Source of the DNA: Thermoanaerobaculales bacterium
GTDB lineage: Bacteria; Acidobacteriota; Thermoanaerobaculia; Thermoanaerobaculales; Sulfomarinibacteraceae
Direction of reading: 5' to 3'
NCBI GenBank assembly: GCA_035358815.1
Contig: DAOPQC010000001.1
Location: 22,100 to 86,099 of the forward strand
Length of the DNA stretch: 64,000 nucleotides
Shown here one piece after another: positions 15,556 to 64,000 of this stretch (within the stretch, counting starts at the first letter, position 1; each line of letters starts with the position of its first letter). The position numbers were made by a program, and so were the translations under genes. The notes below the pieces were generated by a model. That model saw only the letters and a program-made list of their open reading frames with translations, made no database searches and had not been told where the DNA came from.

Positions 15556-15915
15556 TCAGTCGTCCAGCAAGCTCTCCAGAGTCGTCACGAGACCGGGGAG
15601 GTCGACCGCAGCTACGTCCCACACGATGTCGTGGTCGACCGCAGCATAGCCATGGACGAGGCGGTTCCGCATTCCGATGATCTCGCGCCAGGGGACCTGC
15701 GGCAGGTCTCTTCGCGTAGCTTCCGTGACCTTGCTCGCAGCCTCGCCGGTCACCTCGATGAACCGCTCAAGCGCAGCCGCCAGGACCGGATCGGCGTCGA
15801 GATCCTCTCTGCGGCAGTGAGCCACCGCGTTCACCGCACGCCGCGCGTGGTCGAGCATGTCGCGAAGGAGGACGTCGTCCTCAGCCGGCCTCATAAATCG
15901 GTAACGCGTCGACAA
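15556..15915 (-). CDS. hepT: HepT (DUF86, HEPN RNase) toxin of an MntA/HepT toxin-antitoxin pair
   Basis: HEPN Rx4H motif 'RNRLVHGY'. The gene overlaps the upstream nucleotidyltransferase gene. Confidence 0.85.
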   Translation of the reverse strand: MSTRYRFMRPAEDDVLLRDMLDHARRAVNAVAHCRREDLDADPVLAAALERFIEVTGEAASKVTEATRRDLPQVPWREIIGMRNRLVHGYAAVDHDIVWDVAAVDLPGLVTTLESLLDD

Positions 15916-16204
15916 GCACGCGCTGTCGGAAGTGCGGGCTCAGGAAACCCGGTGTGCTGAGGTCCACTTCGCGATCGAAGAGATGGGAGAGCTCATCCTG
16001 GAGGGTGATGAATCGGAGACCGACGCGTTGTCCTGGCAGGAACTCGACGAGCAGGTCGAGGTCACTCTCCGGATCGGAGTCCCCCCGCGCGACTGAGCCG
16101 AACACCGCGAGCCGACGGACGCCGTGCCGCCGGCAGAGCCGCGCCAGTCGCTCCTGATCAACTTTGAAATGCCGGATCGCCATGGCGTCATCATGATACC
16201 CCAT
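15881..16204 (-). CDS. mntA: MntA minimal nucleotidyltransferase antitoxin
   Basis: 'FGSVARGDSDPESDLDLLVEF' (GSxxRG..DxD NTase motif). Alternative start at 16183. Confidence 0.85.
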   Translation of the reverse strand: MGYHDDAMAIRHFKVDQERLARLCRRHGVRRLAVFGSVARGDSDPESDLDLLVEFLPGQRVGLRFITLQDELSHLFDREVDLSTPGFLSPHFRQRVLVDALPIYEAG

Positions 16205-57848: not shown

Positions 57849-58907
57849 ATGACGACGTATCGCGATTCGGGGGTGGACATCGACGCCCAGGACCAGGCGC
57901 TGGCCCGGGTCAAGGAGCTGGTGCGGTCGACCTACACCGACGGCGTGCTGTCGGACCAGGGCTCGTTCGGCGGCATGTTCCGGCTCCCGACCAAAGGCCT
58001 CAAGGAGCCGGTCCTGGTGGCCTCGGCTGACGGGGTCGGCACCAAGCTCAAGGTGGCGTTCGCCGCCGGCCGCCACGACACGGTCGGCCAGGACCTCGTC
58101 AACCACTGCGTCAACGACATCCTGGTCCTGGGCGCGCGGCCGCTCTTCTTCCTCGATTACCTGGCGACCGGCCGGCTCGACCCTGCGGTCGCGGCGTCGG
58201 TGATCGGCGGCGTCGCGACCGCCTGCAAGGAGCGCGGGATCGCGCTGCTCGGCGGCGAGACCGCCGAGATGCCGGGCTTCTACGCCGACGGCGAGTACGA
58301 CCTCGCCGGCTTCATCGTCGGGGTCGTCGACCGCAAGCGGATCCTCGACGGCTCGGCGGTCGAGGAGGGCGACGTGCTGGTCGGGCTGCCGTCGACCGGC
58401 CTCCACACCAACGGCTACTCGCTCGCGCGCAAGGTGCTGTTCGAGGTCCTCGGCTGCCGGCCGGACCAGGTCCTGCCCGAGCTCGGCGTGAGTGTGGCCG
58501 ACGAGCTGCTGAAGGTCCATCGCAGCTACCTCGAGCCGGTGTGGCCGCTGCTCGAGGAGGGGTGGGTGCACGCCGCCGCGCACGTCACCGGCGGCGGCAT
58601 CACCGACAACCTGCCGCGGGTGCTGCCCGAGGGCGCGCGGGCGCGGATCAAGGTCGGCGCCTGGGAGGTCCCGCCGGTGTTCCGGCTGCTCGCCGAGCGC
58701 GGCGAGGTTCCCGAGGACGACATGTGGCGGACCTTCAACCTCGGCGTCGGCATGGTCCTGGTGGTGCCGCCCAAGGTCCTCGGCAAGGTGCTCGAGTCGC
58801 TCAAGCGCGACGGCTGCCCTGGTTTCCCCATGGGCAACGTCATCGCCGGCGCGCGCGGCGTCGAGTACGACCACCCCCCGGCCGGTTTCCCGAGCGGCTG
58901 GCGGTAG
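57849..58907 (+). CDS. purM: Phosphoribosylformylglycinamidine cyclo-ligase (AIR synthetase)
   Basis: 'YRDSGVDIDA', 'DGVGTKL' and 'VNDILVLGARPLFFLDY'. Confidence 0.9.
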   Translation: MTTYRDSGVDIDAQDQALARVKELVRSTYTDGVLSDQGSFGGMFRLPTKGLKEPVLVASADGVGTKLKVAFAAGRHDTVGQDLVNHCVNDILVLGARPLFFLDYLATGRLDPAVAASVIGGVATACKERGIALLGGETAEMPGFYADGEYDLAGFIVGVVDRKRILDGSAVEEGDVLVGLPSTGLHTNGYSLARKVLFEVLGCRPDQVLPELGVSVADELLKVHRSYLEPVWPLLEEGWVHAAAHVTGGGITDNLPRVLPEGARARIKVGAWEVPPVFRLLAERGEVPEDDMWRTFNLGVGMVLVVPPKVLGKVLESLKRDGCPGFPMGNVIAGARGVEYDHPPAGFPSGWR

Positions 58908-59028
58908 GCCTTCGTCCCGCATCGGCCTGTTCGCCGGTTGTGCTGGGACGGCCGGCGGGCACAAACAATAGTGCAGGCCGCCAGCGCGGCCGTCGTCGAC
59001 GGGCCCAACGACTGAAGGGCGGGAGCGT

Positions 59029-59077
59029 GTGGTCGGCGTTCTGCCGGAACATCAACCACCGTGCCTGGCACCATTAC
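59029..59077 (+). repeat. Left copy of the direct repeat flanking the hicA/hicB-HEPN cassette
   Basis: GTGGTCGGCG..CCGGAACATCAACCACC-GTGCCTGGCACCA. The core CCGGAACATCAACCACC at 59044-59060 recurs at 60544-60560. Confidence 0.75.
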
Positions 59078-59138
59078 TGGCACCATTACAGAAGAAAACG
59101 AAAGACTTGGTGGTCATGGTCTTGACATTCGGACAAAA

Positions 59139-59378
59139 ATGTCCGAGATTGTTGATGTGACCGGGGCGGAGTTCATCAAGAAGGTCAAGAAGCTGGGGCG
59201 GCGACGTGGAGTGTCGGTCGAGTTCATCGTCGAGCGAGGGAAAGGCAGCCACGGAACCCTCTACTTCGGCGGCCGTTTCACGGTCGTCAAGCACAGAGCT
59301 GCCGAGCTGACGCCGGGACTGCTCCACGCGATGCTGAAGCAGCTCGGCCTGGCGCTCGATGACCTCCGCGGTGAGTAG
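59139..59378 (+). CDS. hicA: HicA-family mRNA interferase toxin
   Basis: The ATG at 59139 lies inside ORF 59061..59378. 'GKGSHGTLYFGGRFTVVKHRAAELTPGLLHAMLKQLGL' is typical of HicA (YcfA-like). Confidence 0.8.
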   Translation: MSEIVDVTGAEFIKKVKKLGRRRGVSVEFIVERGKGSHGTLYFGGRFTVVKHRAAELTPGLLHAMLKQLGLALDDLRGE

Positions 59379-59387
59379 GAGCGAGAC

Positions 59388-60449
59388 ATGACGCACGAGT
59401 TTGCATACCCGGTGGTTCTGGCGACGGACGCGTCCGGAGGTTACGTCGTGAGCTGCCCGGACCTGCCCGAGCTGCTCACCCAGGGTGAGGACCGCGCAGA
59501 CGCCGTCGCCAGCGCCATCGACGCTCTCGAGGAGGCAATCGCGGGTCGAGTCCGCCGGGGCGACGACATCCCGGATCCGTCGGAGCCTCCCGAGGACCTG
59601 GATGTCGAGCTCATCCGGTTGCCGCCGATCATGGCAGCCAAGGCCGCGCTCGCGATCGCGCTCCGGGAGAGCGGGCTGAGCCAATCTGCGTTCGCCCGCG
59701 AGACCGGAGTTGACGAGAAGGAGGTCCGTCGGCTCCTCGACCCTCGGCACCCGTCGAAGCTCCCGCGGCTCCAGAAAGCTCTCCTGTCCGTCGGCAGGGA
59801 GGTGGAGATACGGGTCGTGCCCGTGGCGCGCCCGTCATCTCCCCGTGAATTCGACCAAGTGCCAAGCCAACCTTGTCGAGTCCGGGAAGCCAAACAGCCC
59901 GGATACTCGACCATGGCACGATCAACCGACAGGCGCGCTGATGAGAAGCTGCGATTCGCGAAGGTGCACCTCCGCGAACTCATCGACCACGCCCAGGTTG
60001 GAGGCCACGACAAATGGGAGACCGCTCATCAGGAGAGCTGCTTCTATCACCTCGCCGGGGCGGTGGAGGCTGTCCTGCACGAGATCAACGCCGGCTATGG
60101 GTTGAACCTCGGGCTCAAGGACATCGACTGGAACACTGTTCGCGCCAAGCTCACCACGTCGAACCAGTCGTCGCCAGCGTTCGATCTCCTTTTGGCCACG
60201 AAGACGGACAAGTCGAGCTGGCTTTGGCAGCTGTTCGAGTGGCGCAATCACGGAGCTCATCGTGGGCGAGTCGGGGAAATGATCCACCTGTCGACCAGCA
60301 GGGTGGTGGACAACGAGTTCAAGGACCCCAGGACCGGCGAGGTGCAGTCGGTATACCCAGAGCTGGGCTGCCTGGACGTGCTCAGGAGATTGACTGTGGA
60401 CGTCGAGCACCTGATCGATCGCTGCCGCATCATCGACCCCAGTCTCTGA
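59388..60449 (+). CDS. hicB: HicB-family antitoxin (HicB fold + HTH) fused in frame to a ~190-aa C-terminal HEPN-like domain
   Basis: N-terminus 'YPVVLATDASGGYVVSCPDLPELLTQGEDRADAVASAIDALEEAI' is HicB-like. 'SQSAFARETGVDEKEVRRLL' is the HTH. A Pro/Ser linker follows. The helical C-terminal domain carries 'EWRNHGAHRG', which fits the HEPN R-N-x3-H motif. There is no stop between the parts. Confidence 0.7.
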   Translation: MTHEFAYPVVLATDASGGYVVSCPDLPELLTQGEDRADAVASAIDALEEAIAGRVRRGDDIPDPSEPPEDLDVELIRLPPIMAAKAALAIALRESGLSQSAFARETGVDEKEVRRLLDPRHPSKLPRLQKALLSVGREVEIRVVPVARPSSPREFDQVPSQPCRVREAKQPGYSTMARSTDRRADEKLRFAKVHLRELIDHAQVGGHDKWETAHQESCFYHLAGAVEAVLHEINAGYGLNLGLKDIDWNTVRAKLTTSNQSSPAFDLLLATKTDKSSWLWQLFEWRNHGAHRGRVGEMIHLSTSRVVDNEFKDPRTGEVQSVYPELGCLDVLRRLTVDVEHLIDRCRIIDPSL

Positions 60450-60450
60450 G

Positions 60451-60575
60451 GTGGTCGGCGGACACTCCGCGGTCGGCGCACCGAAGCGCAAACCGCACAG
60501 TCGGTGGCGTATCTTGCCAACCCTCTGGTTGGAACGGCCGTGACCGGAACATCAACCACCTCACCCGGCACCACC
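60451..60575 (+). repeat. Right copy of the direct repeat flanking the hicA/hicB-HEPN cassette
   Basis: GTGGTCGGCG (60451-60460, immediately after the hicB stop), a 78-nt extra segment, then CCGGAACATCAACCACC-TCACCCGGCACCA (60544-60573). Confidence 0.75.
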
Positions 60576-60654
60576 TTCGCGAATGCTCGACGTTGCGGCG
60601 GCCGGTTTGAGCTGCACACGCATCATCGCCCGCTGGTCAGTGCGCGCCTTGACC

Positions 60655-61179
60655 CTACTTGCGAAGGCTGCTGGCTTTTTCGGCTCTTGCCGCCTTGATC
60701 TTGAAACGGTTGACGATGGCGTCTGTGATGAACGCCCTGTTGGTCCGCTGGATCGCCATCGCTACCTCGATCGCGTCGCGGCTGGACAGCACGGAGCTCG
60801 CCACCAGCCGCAGCATGATTTCGAGTCCCCACTGCACGCTGACGTCGGATGCTCTGCACGCTGCACGCAGCGCTCGGTCGTTTGTCACGCAGCACCAACC
60901 GTTGTCCCTGGCCATGACCAGGCACACGACGTCGTCGAACGCGAGCCCCGGCCTCCTCACCGCCGCTTCCAGGAGCTGGCTGAGCGAGGGCACAGCAATC
61001 GATAAGCCGAGCTCCTCGCAGACCGTGACGTCAAGCTGATCGACTTTGGCGAGGACTTCCGTGGCGACGAACAGGGGCCCCGCTTCTCTCGCCACAAGCG
61101 CGAGCACCGAAGGCTCTGTATCCAGATAGTCGATCAGCACATTCGCGTCTACGATCAGCGGACGGTAGTCGCTGATCAA
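60655..61179 (-). CDS. PIN-domain nuclease (DUF4411-like)
   Basis: The TTG start comes immediately after the stop of the upstream Xre-ImmA gene. 'LIVDANVLIDYL' is the first PIN acidic motif. Later 'CVTNDRALR' resembles the PIN C-terminal D motif. Confidence 0.7.
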   Translation of the reverse strand: MISDYRPLIVDANVLIDYLDTEPSVLALVAREAGPLFVATEVLAKVDQLDVTVCEELGLSIAVPSLSQLLEAAVRRPGLAFDDVVCLVMARDNGWCCVTNDRALRAACRASDVSVQWGLEIMLRLVASSVLSSRDAIEVAMAIQRTNRAFITDAIVNRFKIKAARAEKASSLRK

Positions 61180-62322
61180 CTACAAGCTTCCGACCCAGGT
61201 GTTTGCGACCGCACGCATTTCCCTCAACGGGACGCCGAGAACTTCTGCTCCTCGCGACATGGTGATGTGTCCGCCCTCGATTCCCCGCCGAACGAGCAGA
61301 GCCAGGCGATCTTCGCGGAAGTCATGAGGCGACAGCTCGTGCGGCTCATGCCCGCGGGAGTATTCCGGGAAGCTCGCCTGATATGCGTCGGCAGCGAGAG
61401 CTTCGGGTTCATCCTCCCGCAGAAGGGTTCGACCGTACCTCCGCTCGTACTCCTGCTGGAAGAGCCTCCAGATGTTGACTGACGCGCCGGCCGACTGCGA
61501 AAGCCGATAGAGAACAGTCTTGTAGCTCACGCGGAAGATCCGCTTGACCTTCAGCACGCGGTCGACCAGCGCCATCCCCGCGGTCTCGGCCCACTCCTGT
61601 TGGAATACCGCTTCTGGCATGAGGAAATAGGACGCGAACGCGTTCGCCTCCTGCTCGCGGCTTCTCTCCTCTCTGATTTGCACCACGTCATAGTCGCCGG
61701 GGTGGAGCGCGAGATGGCCCAGCTCGTGGGCCGCAGTGAAGATCCAACGCTCGACCGAGATGCGCTCCCAGGTGTTGACTGCCAGGGCCGGCCCCCCATC
61801 CCCCGGACCCACGGACAGCCCGAAGAAGTCGCTCGATGCCCTTTTCGTCGACAGGACCTTCAGCCCCTTTGACTCGAGTCGGCCACAGATGTCACGAATA
61901 GGCTCTCGTTCATCGATCCCAAGGATCGACCTCACGCGTGCGGCCGCCGCTTTTGCACCTTCGGACCGCTTCGATCCGAGATCCGGACACTCGACGCGGT
62001 CATTCAGCAGCCCCTCGAGCTCATTGAACGCCTCGAGCCACCCCGCAACGTCGGCGAGGATCGCGTCTCTGGTGTTGAGGCGCTTGAGCGATCGGAACCT
62101 CACCTGTCGGAGTTGACGCACCGGCACGATCAGGTCCTGCAGTGGAATGGAGAGTGATTCCGCCAGAGCGTGGAGGGTGTCGACACGCGGAAGCGACTTG
62201 CCAGCCTCGAGGTTGCGATAACCCACCCGAGACAGGCCCGCGGCTTCCGCCACCGCGGCCTGAGTCAGCCCTTTGGCCACCCGAACCCGCCGCAGGTTTG
62301 CAGCAAGTGCGTTTGCTTCCAT
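61180..62322 (-). CDS. Xre-family HTH fused to an ImmA/IrrE (COG2856, DUF955) zinc metallopeptidase
   Basis: I prefer the ATG at 62322 because it follows 'GAGGGGGGAG'. HTH 'GLTQAAVAEAAGLSRVGYRNLEAG'. HEXXH motif 'AAHELGHLALH'. Confidence 0.8.
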   Translation of the reverse strand: MEANALAANLRRVRVAKGLTQAAVAEAAGLSRVGYRNLEAGKSLPRVDTLHALAESLSIPLQDLIVPVRQLRQVRFRSLKRLNTRDAILADVAGWLEAFNELEGLLNDRVECPDLGSKRSEGAKAAAARVRSILGIDEREPIRDICGRLESKGLKVLSTKRASSDFFGLSVGPGDGGPALAVNTWERISVERWIFTAAHELGHLALHPGDYDVVQIREERSREQEANAFASYFLMPEAVFQQEWAETAGMALVDRVLKVKRIFRVSYKTVLYRLSQSAGASVNIWRLFQQEYERRYGRTLLREDEPEALAADAYQASFPEYSRGHEPHELSPHDFREDRLALLVRRGIEGGHITMSRGAEVLGVPLREMRAVANTWVGSL

Positions 62323-62342
62323 GGCTCCCCCCCTCGATGAAG

Positions 62343-62371
62343 AAGATAAGTCTTGTGACAATTTCTGTCAA
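62343..62371 (-). promoter_or_regulatory. Candidate sigma-70 promoter of the Xre-ImmA/PIN operon, overlapped by a TGACA-N5-TGTCA operator-like palindrome
   Basis: The minus strand reads TTGACA (62371-62366), a 17-nt spacer, TATCTT (62348-62343), 20 nt including the SD, then ATG 62322. The palindrome TGACA(62356-60)/TGTCA(62366-70) overlaps the -35 element and spacer. Confidence 0.4.
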
Positions 62372-62557
62372 GCTGATAACTTTAGAATCGTGGCCGCCAT
62401 CGCCGAACGAACACCCTTCGATCGCCGAGCGACTTTGAATGTGGTCAGCGTGCCTCTCGTTGGGGATCCGGTGGTTTCCTCGACAAACTCCGCTCAGCCC
62501 GCGCGTCGTCAATGGCTTAGAGCGTGGCCCTGAAGCCCCGTGGCGGGAGGCGCTAAG

Positions 62558-64000
62558 ATGGTCAATGCAATGGCCGAGCAGAAGACACCTGAGCAAGAAG
62601 CGCGGGAACTCATCGACGCCCAGCTTGCCGAGTCGGGTTGGGTCGTCCAGAGCCGTGACGGAATCAACCTCTCGGCCGGGCAGGGCGTCGCGATCCGCGA
62701 GTTCCCGCTCAAGTCCGGGCACGGCTTCGCGGACTACCTGCTCTTCATCGACGGCCAGGCGGTCGGCGTCCTCGAGGCCAAGAAGGTCGGCTTCCCCCTG
62801 ACCGGCGTCGAGGTGCAGGCGCAAAGGTACTCCGAGGGTCTGCCCGATCACCTTGACGCTCCGTACCGGCCGCTTCCATTCTGCTACCTCAGCACGGGCG
62901 CGGTGACCATGTTCTCGAACGGCTTCGACCCACATCCTCGAAGCCGCCGCATCTTCCAGTTCCACCGGCCGACGACCCTGGCGGAGTGGCTCCGGATGGA
63001 TACCCTCGACGCCTGGGTCCGCAGCACCCTGCCCGACGGAGGGTTCTTCACCGGCGCGGACGACACAAAGCCCTCATCTCTCCGGTCCCGCCTCCAGACC
63101 CTCCCGCCGCTCCAGCCGTCCTTCCTCTACCCGAACCAGATCAAGGCCGTCACCAACCTCGATCAGTCGCTCAAGGAGGATCGCCCCCGCGCCCTCATCC
63201 AGATGGCGACCGGCTCGGGCAAGACCATCATGGCGGTCACGGCGATCTACCGCCTCATCAAGTTCGGCGGCGCACGGCGGGTCCTCTTCCTGGTGGATCG
63301 AGGCAACCTCGGCGAGCAGGCCGAGAAGGAGTTCGCCAACTTCCGCTCCCCGGATGACAACCGAAAGTTCACCGAGCTCTATAACGTCCAGCGCCTCGCC
63401 TCAAACAACATCGGCGCCTCGTCCAAGGTGGTGATCTCCACCATCCAGCGCCTCTACTCCATGCTCAAGGGCGAGGAGGAGCTCGACCCGACGGCCGAGG
63501 AGACCTCGCTCTTCGAGCTCGAGGCCGCCGTTCCGAAAGAGCCGCTGCCGGTCGTCTACAACCCGGCCATCCCGCCCGAGCACTTCGATGTCATCGTCGT
63601 CGACGAGTGCCACCGCTCCATCTACTCGCTCTGGCGGCAGGTGCTGGAGTACTTCGACGCCTACCTGATTGGACTGACGGCCACACCCGCCAAGCACACC
63701 TTTGGCTTCTTCAACCAAAACCTGGTGATGGAGTACGGCCACGAGGAGGCGGTCGCCGACGGCGTGAACGTGGACTTCGAGCTCTACCGCATCCGCACCA
63801 GGATCACGGCCGACGGCTCCACCATCGAGGCCGAGGACGGCACGATGGTCGGCATCCGCGACCGCCAGACCCGCCAGACGCGCTGGGAGCAGCCGGACGA
63901 GGACGTGATCTACGACGCGGACGAGCTCGACCGCCGCGTCGTCGCCAAGGACCAGATCCGGCTCATTGTCCAGACCTTCAAGCAGCGGCTCCCAATTGAC
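62558..64000 (+). CDS. hsdR: Type I restriction enzyme R subunit (HsdR, COG4096-like), 5' part; it runs off the window end
   Basis: This ORF is not in the supplied track because it has no stop in the window. My hand translation from the ATG at 62558 is open to 64000. PD-(D/E)xK motif 'ADYLLFIDGQAVGVLEAKK', Walker A 'QMATGSGKT', 'VVVDECHRS' and 'GLTATP'. Confidence 0.85.
   Translation, partial: MVNAMAEQKTPEQEARELIDAQLAESGWVVQSRDGINLSAGQGVAIREFPLKSGHGFADYLLFIDGQAVGVLEAKKVGFPLTGVEVQAQRYSEGLPDHLDAPYRPLPFCYLSTGAVTMFSNGFDPHPRSRRIFQFHRPTTLAEWLRMDTLDAWVRSTLPDGGFFTGADDTKPSSLRSRLQTLPPLQPSFLYPNQIKAVTNLDQSLKEDRPRALIQMATGSGKTIMAVTAIYRLIKFGGARRVLFLVDRGNLGEQAEKEFANFRSPDDNRKFTELYNVQRLASNNIGASSKVVISTIQRLYSMLKGEEELDPTAEETSLFELEAAVPKEPLPVVYNPAIPPEHFDVIVVDECHRSIYSLWRQVLEYFDAYLIGLTATPAKHTFGFFNQNLVMEYGHEEAVADGVNVDFELYRIRTRITADGSTIEAEDGTMVGIRDRQTRQTRWEQPDEDVIYDADELDRRVVAKDQIRLIVQTFKQRLPID

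Follow-up and report, generated by a model that had tools for sequence, protein, structure and literature searches.

A hicAB module whose antitoxin is fused in frame to a HEPN-like domain in an uncultured species of Thermoanaerobaculales

Within a 64,000-nt stretch of Thermoanaerobaculales contig DAOPQC010000001.1 (hereafter the window), a hicA toxin gene is followed by a single ORF of 353 codons in which a HicB antitoxin reads in frame into a HEPN-like domain (Table 1). This layout is confirmed and corresponds to what the initial annotation had described from the sequence alone: hicA and then a 353-aa ORF with no internal stop, opening with about 150 residues of standard HicB (fold plus HTH) and running through a Pro/Ser-rich linker into a helical domain with the signature R-[NHD]-x3-H. 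The linker is flexible, residues 145-178 being predicted to be disordered (pLDDT <50). The 'LFEWRNHGAHRGRV' string quoted in that annotation is found exactly in the C-terminal domain, and the hepT gene with RNRLVH that it mentioned is present elsewhere in the window. Sequence comparisons indicate that the fusion is restricted to one species of uncultured soil/sediment Thermoanaerobaculales (Acidobacteriota). The best explanation, to which we give about an even chance of being right, is that a conditional HEPN effector has been placed under HicAB control in this species.

Table 1. Features of the hicA and hicB::HEPN cassette, its flanking repeats and the hepT gene, in window positions
Feature	Position	Strand	Remarks
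hicA	59139..59378	+	79-aa HicA toxin, mRNA interferase family
HicB::HEPN single ORF	59388..60449	+	353 aa; no internal stops (0)
HicB part, aa 1-144	59388..59819	+	HicB N-fold (HicA-binding) and Xre-type HTH (~aa 79-144)
Linker, aa 145-175	59820..59912	+	Predicted disordered, pLDDT <50
HEPN-like domain, aa 176-353	59913..60449	+	Pfam DUF6586 / Cthe_2314-like HEPN; begins at Met176
R286-N-H-G-A-H291 codons	60243..60260	+	Rx4H HEPN signature, end of predicted core helix 3
30-nt repeat, upstream copy	59044..59073	+	Exact over 17 nt; sister lineage L012 keeps it at the corresponding site
30-nt repeat, downstream direct copy	60544..60573	+	The copies bracket the cassette; spacing exactly 1500 nt
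hepT gene with RNRLVH	15556-15939	-	Pfam HepT-like, 78 bits

The two genes follow the hicA-then-hicB order of HicAB type II toxin-antitoxin operons, separated by 9 nt, and a strong Shine-Dalgarno sequence (AGGAG) lies 6 nt before the start of the 353-aa ORF. The hicA product matches Pfam HicA_toxin over residues 29-71 (28.4 bits, gathering threshold 27), retains the G-S-H motif of the family, which holds the catalytic His, as GKGSHG and shares 84% identity with the HicA adjoining the closest full-length HicB (L010); a sequence search against the PDB gave no match. Residues 1-144 of the fusion protein have 579 homologues, named HicB and, among those listed, nearly all 145-147 residues long. This part carries the HicB N-fold together with a DNA-binding domain, as expected for the antitoxin of a HicAB pair. 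It matches E. coli HicB (6hpb_B/6u0i) with an E-value of 2e-17 in sequence searches, and its structural model (pLDDT >90) does so in Foldseek with E-values of 3e-10 to 1e-9, TM scores of 0.88-0.89 and an rmsd of 2.0-2.2 Å. Pfam HicB_lk_antitox scores 25.8 bits on the fusion ORF, narrowly below its gathering threshold of 27. NCBIfam and PADLOC returned nothing useful for hicA, the fusion or the isolated HEPN domain, and the NCBI entries for the fusion protein (HOC41430.1 / HQN95952.1) bear "HicB family antitoxin" as sole annotation. The module thus resembles E. coli K-12 HicAB (PDB 6hpb, 6u0i) in gene order and in the N-domain plus Xre-HTH layout of the antitoxin (35% identity over 139 columns, TM 0.89), from which it differs by about 210 additional C-terminal residues that make up the linker and the HEPN domain.

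The fusion of hicB to the HEPN gene is real. Seventeen independent Thermoanaerobaculales contigs, from metagenomes or MAGs in JGI, NCBI, Logan and ENA samples (the NCBI MAG GCA_035422585.1 among them), encode an identical 353-aa protein, and variants of 94-99% identity are either 353 aa long or cut by contig ends, as are the 12 members of the protein cluster. A stop or frameshift parting the two halves, an eventuality raised in the initial annotation, occurs in none of more than 20 independent contigs. That two genes had been merged through faulty sequencing or assembly, by loss of a stop or by a frameshift, could have been suspected from the stand-alone state of all C-terminal homologues, which start at the position of the internal Met176, and from one cluster member called as 178 aa (P0308), but that call comes from a contig that breaks off 115 nt before Met176 and still encodes the linker in the stretch that remains, and the same in-frame junction recurs in the 17 exact-protein contigs and in the 94-99% variants from unrelated samples and assemblers, so that this reading is rejected as vanishingly improbable.

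The domain at residues 176-353 is mostly helical and contains the motif EWRNHGAHR (R286 to H291). The isolated domain matches Pfam DUF6586 (PF20227) with 27.2 bits for a gathering threshold of 27, the full-length fusion protein giving 24.4 bits, and all 30 homologues of the domain hit the same family (best E-value 4e-12). DUF6586 overlaps the Cthe_2314-like HEPN family. On the corresponding profile, HEPN_Cthe2314 (PF18730), the window domain reaches 12.7 bits against a threshold of 27.1, while 26 of the 30 homologues touch it, relatives P0006 and P0010 score 24-26.6 bits, the more distant P0165 passes the threshold with 35.3 bits, and a protein encoded next to the homologue in locus L015 scores 36.4 bits. 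The domain is thus, as judged from these profiles, related to Cthe_2314-like HEPN proteins and a non-member by score; the guess made at the outset that it belongs near this family was right. The 31 close homologues of the HEPN part are all 116-193 aa long, and in each of the 29 that align at full length the start falls at the position of Met176. The arginine and histidine of the motif, whose conservation had been named as a point to check, are invariant in 30/30 close homologues and both retained in 107 of 111 distant cluster representatives, with N, D or H at position 2; H/E residues of helix 2 are likewise conserved in the window domain and across the family.

The AlphaFold2 model of the domain (pLDDT 86, pTM 0.84) has helices at residues 4-25, 34-61, 103-117 and 153-174 in domain numbering, with an inserted hairpin of helices 73-82 and 88-98. 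R111-N-H-G-A-H116 sits at the C-terminal end of helix 103-117, in keeping with the Rx4-6H pattern of HEPN proteins, and the predicted arrangement agrees with the fold described for the superfamily (PMC3710099): H1, H2, a helical-hairpin insert, H3 ending in Rx4H, a loop and H4. Foldseek against the PDB returned HEPN structures (HepT/sacsin) for all of the top 13 matches, with probabilities up to 0.97, matches that are weak in absolute terms (E 0.2-1, TM 0.4-0.6). The same search against viral structures gave nothing meaningful, and the family profile found only chance matches (E >0.5) among PDB sequences. Sequence and model together indicate a HEPN-like domain in which the R-[NDH]-x3-H signature is conserved, as first proposed. 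The literature searched contained no paper mentioning DUF6586 and no biochemical or genetic data for DUF6586 or Cthe_2314-family proteins.

The best structural matches are HepT proteins of HepT-MntA systems (PDB 5yep, 6m6u, 7bxo, 7ae8), with which the domain shares a four-helix core and an Rx4H ending helix 3; it differs in being larger, with the helical-hairpin insert and a beta-hairpin loop. Neither the cassette nor 13 other loci of the family have an adjacent MNT nucleotidyltransferase gene, the hallmark of HEPN-MNT pairs, and Pfam HepT-like (DUF86) has no match in the domain. A profile-level link to DUF86-type HEPN proteins was rejected: the HepT encoded in the window showed no similarity to the family by sequence, and hhalign between the two gave only an 11-column match with a probability of 1%.

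The cassette lies in an islet of lower GC content downstream of purM (72% falling to 60-65%), where its neighbours are a RosmerTA-like pair and an ORF resembling type I HsdR. Relatives of the HEPN gene neighbour type IIG or type I restriction-modification genes, SIR2_2 or a second Cthe_2314 HEPN, and the setting has, from its gene content, the character of a defence islet. A 30-nt repeat found on both sides of the cassette (two matches for about 0 expected) has a 94% identical counterpart of its upstream copy in sister lineage L012 (241-274), where the downstream copy is inverted (869-892). Scans of 58800-60800 for Rfam families, tRNAs, promoters and terminators revealed nothing accounting for the repeats, leaving a tRNA-derived att site unsupported. 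Flanking repeats are missing around 10 other solo HEPN genes, hence they are not a family-wide signature of mobile elements. An apparent third copy in L030 was discarded as an assembly gap (run of N) with duplicated edges.

The HEPN family comprises about 315 clusters at 50% identity, mostly stand-alone proteins of about 180 aa and a few with other extensions. No HicB was found in the rest of the family, be it among the 31 close homologues or the ~315 clusters, and no neighbouring gene of any kind recurs across 13 non-redundant loci. The search for the same fusion that the initial annotation had called for therefore succeeded only within one species, in the 17 contigs mentioned above. A scan of GTDB species genomes gave 53 pattern matches and 0 true relatives, the family and the source organism both being missing from that collection, and a 352-aa protein with another N-terminus (P0155) was dismissed as a second architecture because its copy of the domain is truncated. 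The domain shares its family assignment and its Rx4H with the Cthe_2314-like/DUF6586 proteins at large, which are mostly stand-alone and lack a conserved operon, the window protein being the sole HicB fusion among the members found; the superfamily survey lists "None detected" for the architectures and operons of Cthe_2314 (Anantharaman et al. 2013, PMC3710099). Since relatives mostly stand alone without a conserved neighbour, the domain evidently needs, as a family trait, no dedicated antitoxin.

In sister lineage L012, purM and the repeat are accompanied by a solo HEPN gene, which occupies the corresponding place downstream of purM, and hicAB is missing. Because the family otherwise lacks HicB and L012 keeps the solo gene at the same locus, the fusion is derived and local, a recent accident of gene order rather than a conserved architecture. 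The solo gene of L012 has a GGAG Shine-Dalgarno sequence and a GTG start, and most solo homologues have a Shine-Dalgarno sequence, while none is recognisable before Met176 in the window. Homology of hicB to L009 stops at 59834 and nucleotide homology of the HEPN part to L012 begins at 59943. The linker sequence from 59835 on (26 codons, 78 nt) matches neither the hicB relatives, whose tails were searched for its origin, nor the region upstream of the solo HEPN gene in the sister lineage, and the closest HicB relatives share RVVPVA[RT]P, beyond which their C-terminal tails are unrelated. A hicAB cassette has thus arrived directly ahead of a solo HEPN gene that was already in place. The 3' end of hicB was lost together with its stop codon, and the 78 nt now found there encode some of the roughly 30 disordered residues of the linker, so that translation of HicB runs on into the HEPN ORF through Met176, the former start.

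Co-existing alleles give dN/dS values of 0.18 for hicA (against the L013 allele), 0.12 for HicB residues 1-72 and 0.17 for residues 121-178 of the HEPN domain, showing that hicA, the HicB N-domain and the C-terminal third of HEPN are under purifying selection. The block around the junction (HicB residues 73-147, the linker and HEPN residues 1-120) is nearly identical across strains, so these values bear on the ends of the cassette and not on the fused state itself. Divergent N-terminal and C-terminal allele types occur in all four combinations, and the fused gene therefore persists in a recombining population.

We favour the hypothesis that HicAB controls a conditional HEPN effector. As in E. 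coli HicAB, the N-domain of HicB would neutralise HicA in trans, and autorepression of the operon would act through an HTH dimer. Since the HEPN part has no recognisable Shine-Dalgarno sequence of its own, it is probably made only in a 1:1 ratio with the antitoxin, from the hicAB promoter; internal initiation at Met176 may be an alternative. Because the flexible linker ties it to a scaffold that is itself dimeric, the HEPN part should more readily form its homodimer, whose composite site would provide the metal-independent RNase activity of the superfamily, and the dose, location and turnover of HEPN would be coupled to a labile antitoxin. The domain would then be a conditional RNase effector, probably related to defence like its relatives adjacent to restriction-modification and SIR2 genes, rather than a classical toxin with its own antidote.

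The fusion, confined as it is to one uncultured species, may also be functionally neutral: a deletion would have taken away the end of hicB with its stop codon, along with the HEPN ribosome-binding site, leaving two halves that each carry on with their earlier, separate task within a single polypeptide, in a state that may be transient. Its occurrence in a single species, the solo gene that the sister lineage has at this position, the tolerance of this HicB subclade for arbitrary C-terminal tails and the predicted independence of the domains all fit such an accident, as does the junction block, which has almost no divergence and hence is young. Yet the fused ORF is intact in all of the more than 20 contigs, and its presence in all four combinations of 5' and 3' divergent alleles means that it survived recombination and spread; moreover, a dimer-dependent enzyme placed on a dimeric DNA-binding scaffold would hardly keep its activity and dosage unchanged. 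We consider neutrality rather unlikely on balance.

The initial annotation had suggested a three-part toxin-antitoxin system with HEPN as a second toxin under HicB. One labile antitoxin would govern two RNases from unrelated families, HicA in trans and HEPN in cis, the tethered HEPN being inert, occluded or kept from its active dimer in the HicA-HicB complex. Once phage infection or stress led to proteolysis of the antitoxin or of the exposed linker, HicA would be released together with HEPN in its active dimeric form. The catalytic signature, intact and under purifying selection, would suit such a switch, as would the long disordered linker, which would be accessible to proteases, the defence-island setting and the restraint that partners generally exert on HEPN toxins, HepT-MntA providing the top fold matches. 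Against it, the HEPN domain is evidently tolerated without an antitoxin, being mostly solo in its ~315 clusters and lacking a conserved neighbour in the 13 loci; the fusion is limited to one species; and the full-length model (pTM 0.55) has independently folded domains with no sign of docking. The suggestion is thus unsupported and in our judgement improbable, and HicAB control of a conditional effector is the more likely of the two; were the switch real, it would be a naturally evolved chimeric toxin-antitoxin or abortive-infection system observed as it arises, its unfused ancestor living on in a sister lineage. A role of HEPN as a non-catalytic sensor or RNA/nucleotide-binding module tuning HicB, for instance by releasing HicA or the operator upon binding a phage or stress signal, would suit its place at the C-terminus of a regulator and has precedents in several non-catalytic or ligand-binding HEPN families (PMC3710099), but window and family keep the full R-N-x3-H and the helix-2 H/E typical of active HEPN RNases, making this role very unlikely.

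Other proteins join comparable activities on one chain. EzeT and fused CapRel combine a toxin-type domain and an antitoxin-type domain that acts in cis, the antitoxin domain neutralising a toxin domain of its own family. In the fusion described here, by contrast, the domains come from unrelated families and neutralisation in cis is only putative. The HEPN-RHH fusions of the paREP1 family (Makarova et al. 2009, PMC2701414) likewise unite HEPN and a DNA-binding module of toxin-antitoxin type on one polypeptide. They belong to the MNT-HEPN world and have RHH as partner, whereas the partner here is a complete HicB, with HicA-binding and HTH parts, whose own toxin gene lies upstream.

HicAB and HEPN systems have been described as strictly unique pairs that do not combine with components of other toxin-antitoxin systems (PMC2701414). 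If our interpretation holds, the fusion would be a natural counter-example to this rule, made by a simple deletion, and a first functional lead for the rare DUF6586/Cthe_2314-like HEPN family. It offers a compact test case of a dimer-dependent RNase tethered to a dimeric, labile repressor, possibly with new regulatory logic, and the existence of fused and unfused states in close relatives makes a clean comparison possible. The family itself looks, from its sequences, catalytically competent, solo, lodged in defence islands and capable of being wired to a toxin-antitoxin module.

The cassette downstream of purM starts with hicA and continues, after a 9-nt gap and behind a strong AGGAG Shine-Dalgarno sequence, with the single fused ORF hicB::HEPN. 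Residues 1 to ~144 of the fusion protein are a standard HicB with 579 homologues in a collection of 5.8 billion proteins, nearly all 145-147 amino acids long and named HicB. E. coli HicB (6hpb, 6u0i) matches this part in sequence searches (E 2e-17) and superposes on its AlphaFold model with TM-scores of 0.88-0.89 (rmsd 2.0-2.2 Å, ~140 columns). The full-length AlphaFold model (pLDDT 87, pTM 0.55) has two well-folded domains joined by residues 145-178, a disordered linker with pLDDT below 50. The hicA-hicB pair shows every testable hallmark of HicAB modules, and the ORF, the homologues and the structural model agree with the order HicA, HicB, linker and C-terminal helical domain of the initial annotation.

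The HicB-HEPN fusion is real and unique to one species. Its uninterrupted reading frame, with no stop separating two genes, is confirmed by 17 contigs that encode the identical 353-residue protein and come from unrelated samples of JGI, NCBI, Logan and ENA, and the alternative of an artefact is refuted. The host is an uncultured Thermoanaerobaculales bacterium, for which NCBI names the protein only 'HicB family antitoxin'. The 12 members of its 90% cluster are all 353 residues long or cut by a contig end. The 178-residue call P0308 was rejected as an unfused variant: the contig ends 115 nt away and the upstream sequence still encodes the linker. No other HicB fusion was detected among 31 close homologues of the C-terminal domain or, except for the window's own, among about 315 family clusters, and no earlier report was found in the literature. 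P0155, a 352-residue protein from the search that yielded 315 relatives, has an unrelated amino terminus of ~210 residues followed by a truncated domain (profile positions 46-178) and could reflect a further fusion or an error in gene calling.

A search with the segment from Met176 to the end retrieved 31 proteins (E down to 3e-80) of 116-193 residues, mostly exactly 178, and all 29 full-length aligned homologues start at the Met176 position. Pfam DUF6586 is matched by all 30 aligned members and HEPN_Cthe2314 is also touched by 26 of them; the window domain reaches the DUF6586 threshold and falls below that of Cthe_2314, which is passed by more distant relatives (P0165, 35.3 bits; the tandem neighbour in contig L015, 36.4 bits). 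All 30 aligned homologues share R, G, the second H and the last R of the motif EWRNHGAHR, and at least 90% of them have its N and first H. When 1.84 billion cluster representatives were searched exhaustively with HMMER, 315 relatives emerged; among the best 149, the motif region is covered in 111, and 107 of these keep both R and H. The second motif position is N in 59, D in 31 and H in 17, a pattern that is the canonical HEPN R-[NDH]-x3-H. Conservation is equally high at helix-2 residues H39, E41 and E57. In its AlphaFold model (pLDDT 86, pTM 0.84), the domain consists of helices 1 and 2, an inserted helical hairpin, helix 3 with the motif at its end, a loop holding a small β-hairpin, and helix 4. 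Its best 13 Foldseek matches among PDB structures are without exception HEPN domains, from Shewanella HepT (5yep, 6m6u, 7bxo, 6m6w) and sacsin (3o10), with probabilities up to 0.97 yet weak E-values (0.2-1) and TM-scores of 0.4-0.6. Fold and motif are thus those of HEPN proteins, as first annotated. Sequence-profile searches of the PDB with the domain family found nothing. A genuine HepT-like toxin gene is indeed present in the window, as had been noted; hhalign found no match between its product and the domain family, and a DUF86-type HepT identity was rejected. We conclude that the C-terminal domain belongs to the Cthe_2314-like/DUF6586 branch of HEPN and looks catalytically competent. A 2013 survey gives no architecture or operon for the Cthe_2314 branch (PMC3710099), and no mention of DUF6586 was found in the literature.

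The origin of the fusion can be read from L012, a contig of a sister lineage syntenic with the window. It encodes P0001, the closest homologue of the HEPN domain (69% identical). Its purM ends with the same C-terminal peptide as that of the window and is followed by the repeat also found there (33 nt), 20 nt, then a GGAG Shine-Dalgarno sequence and a GTG-initiated stand-alone HEPN gene. No hicAB lies between this repeat and the HEPN gene; therefore, hicAB was inserted at this place in the window. One of the two closest HicB relatives, in L010, has 216 aa and is 69% identical; the other, in L009 (88% identical), is a pseudogene interrupted in frame by a stop behind 'LLDPRHP', with no hicA and an M78 fragment following it. 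Both have their own extensions of 40-70 residues past the usual HicB end, starting after 'RVVPVA[RT]PE.TETRP.SY'. The window hicB homology ends exactly after 'RVVPVA[RT]P' (nt 59834), nucleotide homology to L012 restarts at 59943, and a 78-nt segment in between matches neither the HicB relatives nor L012. The ancestral start codon Met176 is kept without the Shine-Dalgarno sequence that most solo homologues have. GC content is about 72% in purL/purM versus 60-65% throughout the islet 58900-62600, consistent with horizontally acquired DNA.

Features of the cassette, its surroundings and compared loci
Feature	Locus	Position	Strand	Characteristics
hepT	window	15556-15939	-	Pfam HepT-like 78 bits; RNRLVH
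Repeat, upstream copy	window	59044-59073	+	30 nt, 17 nt exact; CCGGAACATCAACCACC...GGCACCA
hicA	window	59139-59378	+	79 aa; Pfam HicA_toxin 28.4 bits (cut-off 27 bits); G-S-H motif kept
hicB::HEPN	window	59388-60449	+	353 codons; 0 internal stops
Repeat, downstream copy	window	60544-60573	+	spacing exactly 1500 nt; copies bracket hicA-hicB::HEPN
PIN-like ORF	window	60655-61179	-	174 aa; Pfam PIN E 0.0016
Xre-HTH + M78 Zn-peptidase	window	61180-62361	-	393 aa; PADLOC RmrA E 5e-36
Type I restriction R-subunit-like ORF	window	62558-64000	+	runs off window; ResIII 134 bits, HSDR_N 25.9 bits, PADLOC REase_I
Repeat	L012	241-274	+	upstream of solo HEPN gene
Repeat, inverted	L012	869-892	-	40 nt downstream of solo HEPN gene
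hicB pseudogene	L009	6001-6560		C-terminal extension
hicB	L010	401-1051		C-terminal extension
Solo DUF6586 gene	L015	4001-4513		
HEPN paralogue	L015	4649-5419		256 aa; Cthe_2314-like, 36.4 bits
DUF5677 proteins	L026	1737-2669, 3029-3931		

The two repeat copies at the window cassette compare with about 0 expected. The repeat is absent around other HEPN-family members and has no Rfam or tRNA match; its candidate roles are those of an operator, a REP-like element or a recombination site. Directly after the upstream copy, TGGCACCATTAC is tandemly duplicated (59070-59092), as also in contig L030. The strain variants L013 (1336-1352) and L014 carry it once, with a spacer 6 nt shorter, a small-scale difference in what is putatively the promoter of hicA.

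Immediately downstream of the fusion gene, the PIN-like and Xre-HTH/M78 genes abut in the layout of RosmerTA, a Zn-peptidase antitoxin with a toxin of unknown function. The PIN-like product has no PADLOC match and is possibly a new PIN-type toxin. Homology with L013 and L014 stops at 62660-62663, therefore islet content differs between strains beyond this point. No neighbouring gene is common to 13 non-redundant loci of the HEPN family. Solo members neighbour a type IIG R-M enzyme (L021), a type I R C-terminal domain (L020), a SIR2_2 protein (L003) and a second Cthe_2314 HEPN (L015), and the family has the appearance of an accessory gene of defence islands. The L015 metagenome contig carries its two related HEPN genes directly in tandem, and in L026 a distant DUF6586 homologue is directly preceded by genes for two DUF5677 proteins.

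Differences between the window and its 97% identical variants L013 and L014 are mosaic. Two stretches diverge, 59137-59599 and 60276-60471. Nucleotide difference is 19% in hicA (dS 0.63, dN/dS 0.18), 8% in HicB residues 1-72 (dS 0.26, dN/dS 0.12) and 11.5% in HEPN residues 121-178 (dS 0.375, dN/dS 0.17), with 0-2 differences from HicB residues 73-147 through the linker to HEPN residue 120, and 0-3% in flanking genes. Among the 12 cluster members, each of the two N-terminal allele types is found with each of the two C-terminal types; therefore, recombination inside the cassette shuffles divergent alleles and the fused gene persists in a recombining population. Purifying selection acts on both variable ends of the gene. 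These dN/dS values cover the variable segments, the junction being too young for a measure of selection on the fused state, and a functionally neutral fusion keeps a minor share of probability.

HicAB and HEPN-MNT were described as strictly unique pairs, with exceptions for certain domain fusions, HEPN-RHH among them (PMC2701414). The HicB-HEPN fusion combines two known kinds and is confined to one uncultured species. Its HEPN domain differs from HEPN-MNT modules in having neither an MNT neighbour nor a HepT-like sequence match. We regard it as a conditional effector, not as a toxin in need of an antidote, because its relatives live without any partner. The three-part switch of the initial annotation, with the HEPN domain as second toxin neutralised in cis, is unlikely. 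A non-catalytic sensor is very improbable given the conserved R and H. For the conditional effector we infer the following mechanism. By analogy with E. coli HicAB, the N-domain of HicB would neutralise HicA and the HTH dimer would autorepress the operon. The HEPN domain would now be translated only within HicB, hence 1:1 with the antitoxin, and a flexible linker of ~30 residues would tether it to a dimeric scaffold, which should favour the HEPN homodimer that makes a composite RNase site. The dose and turnover of HEPN would thus follow those of the labile antitoxin.
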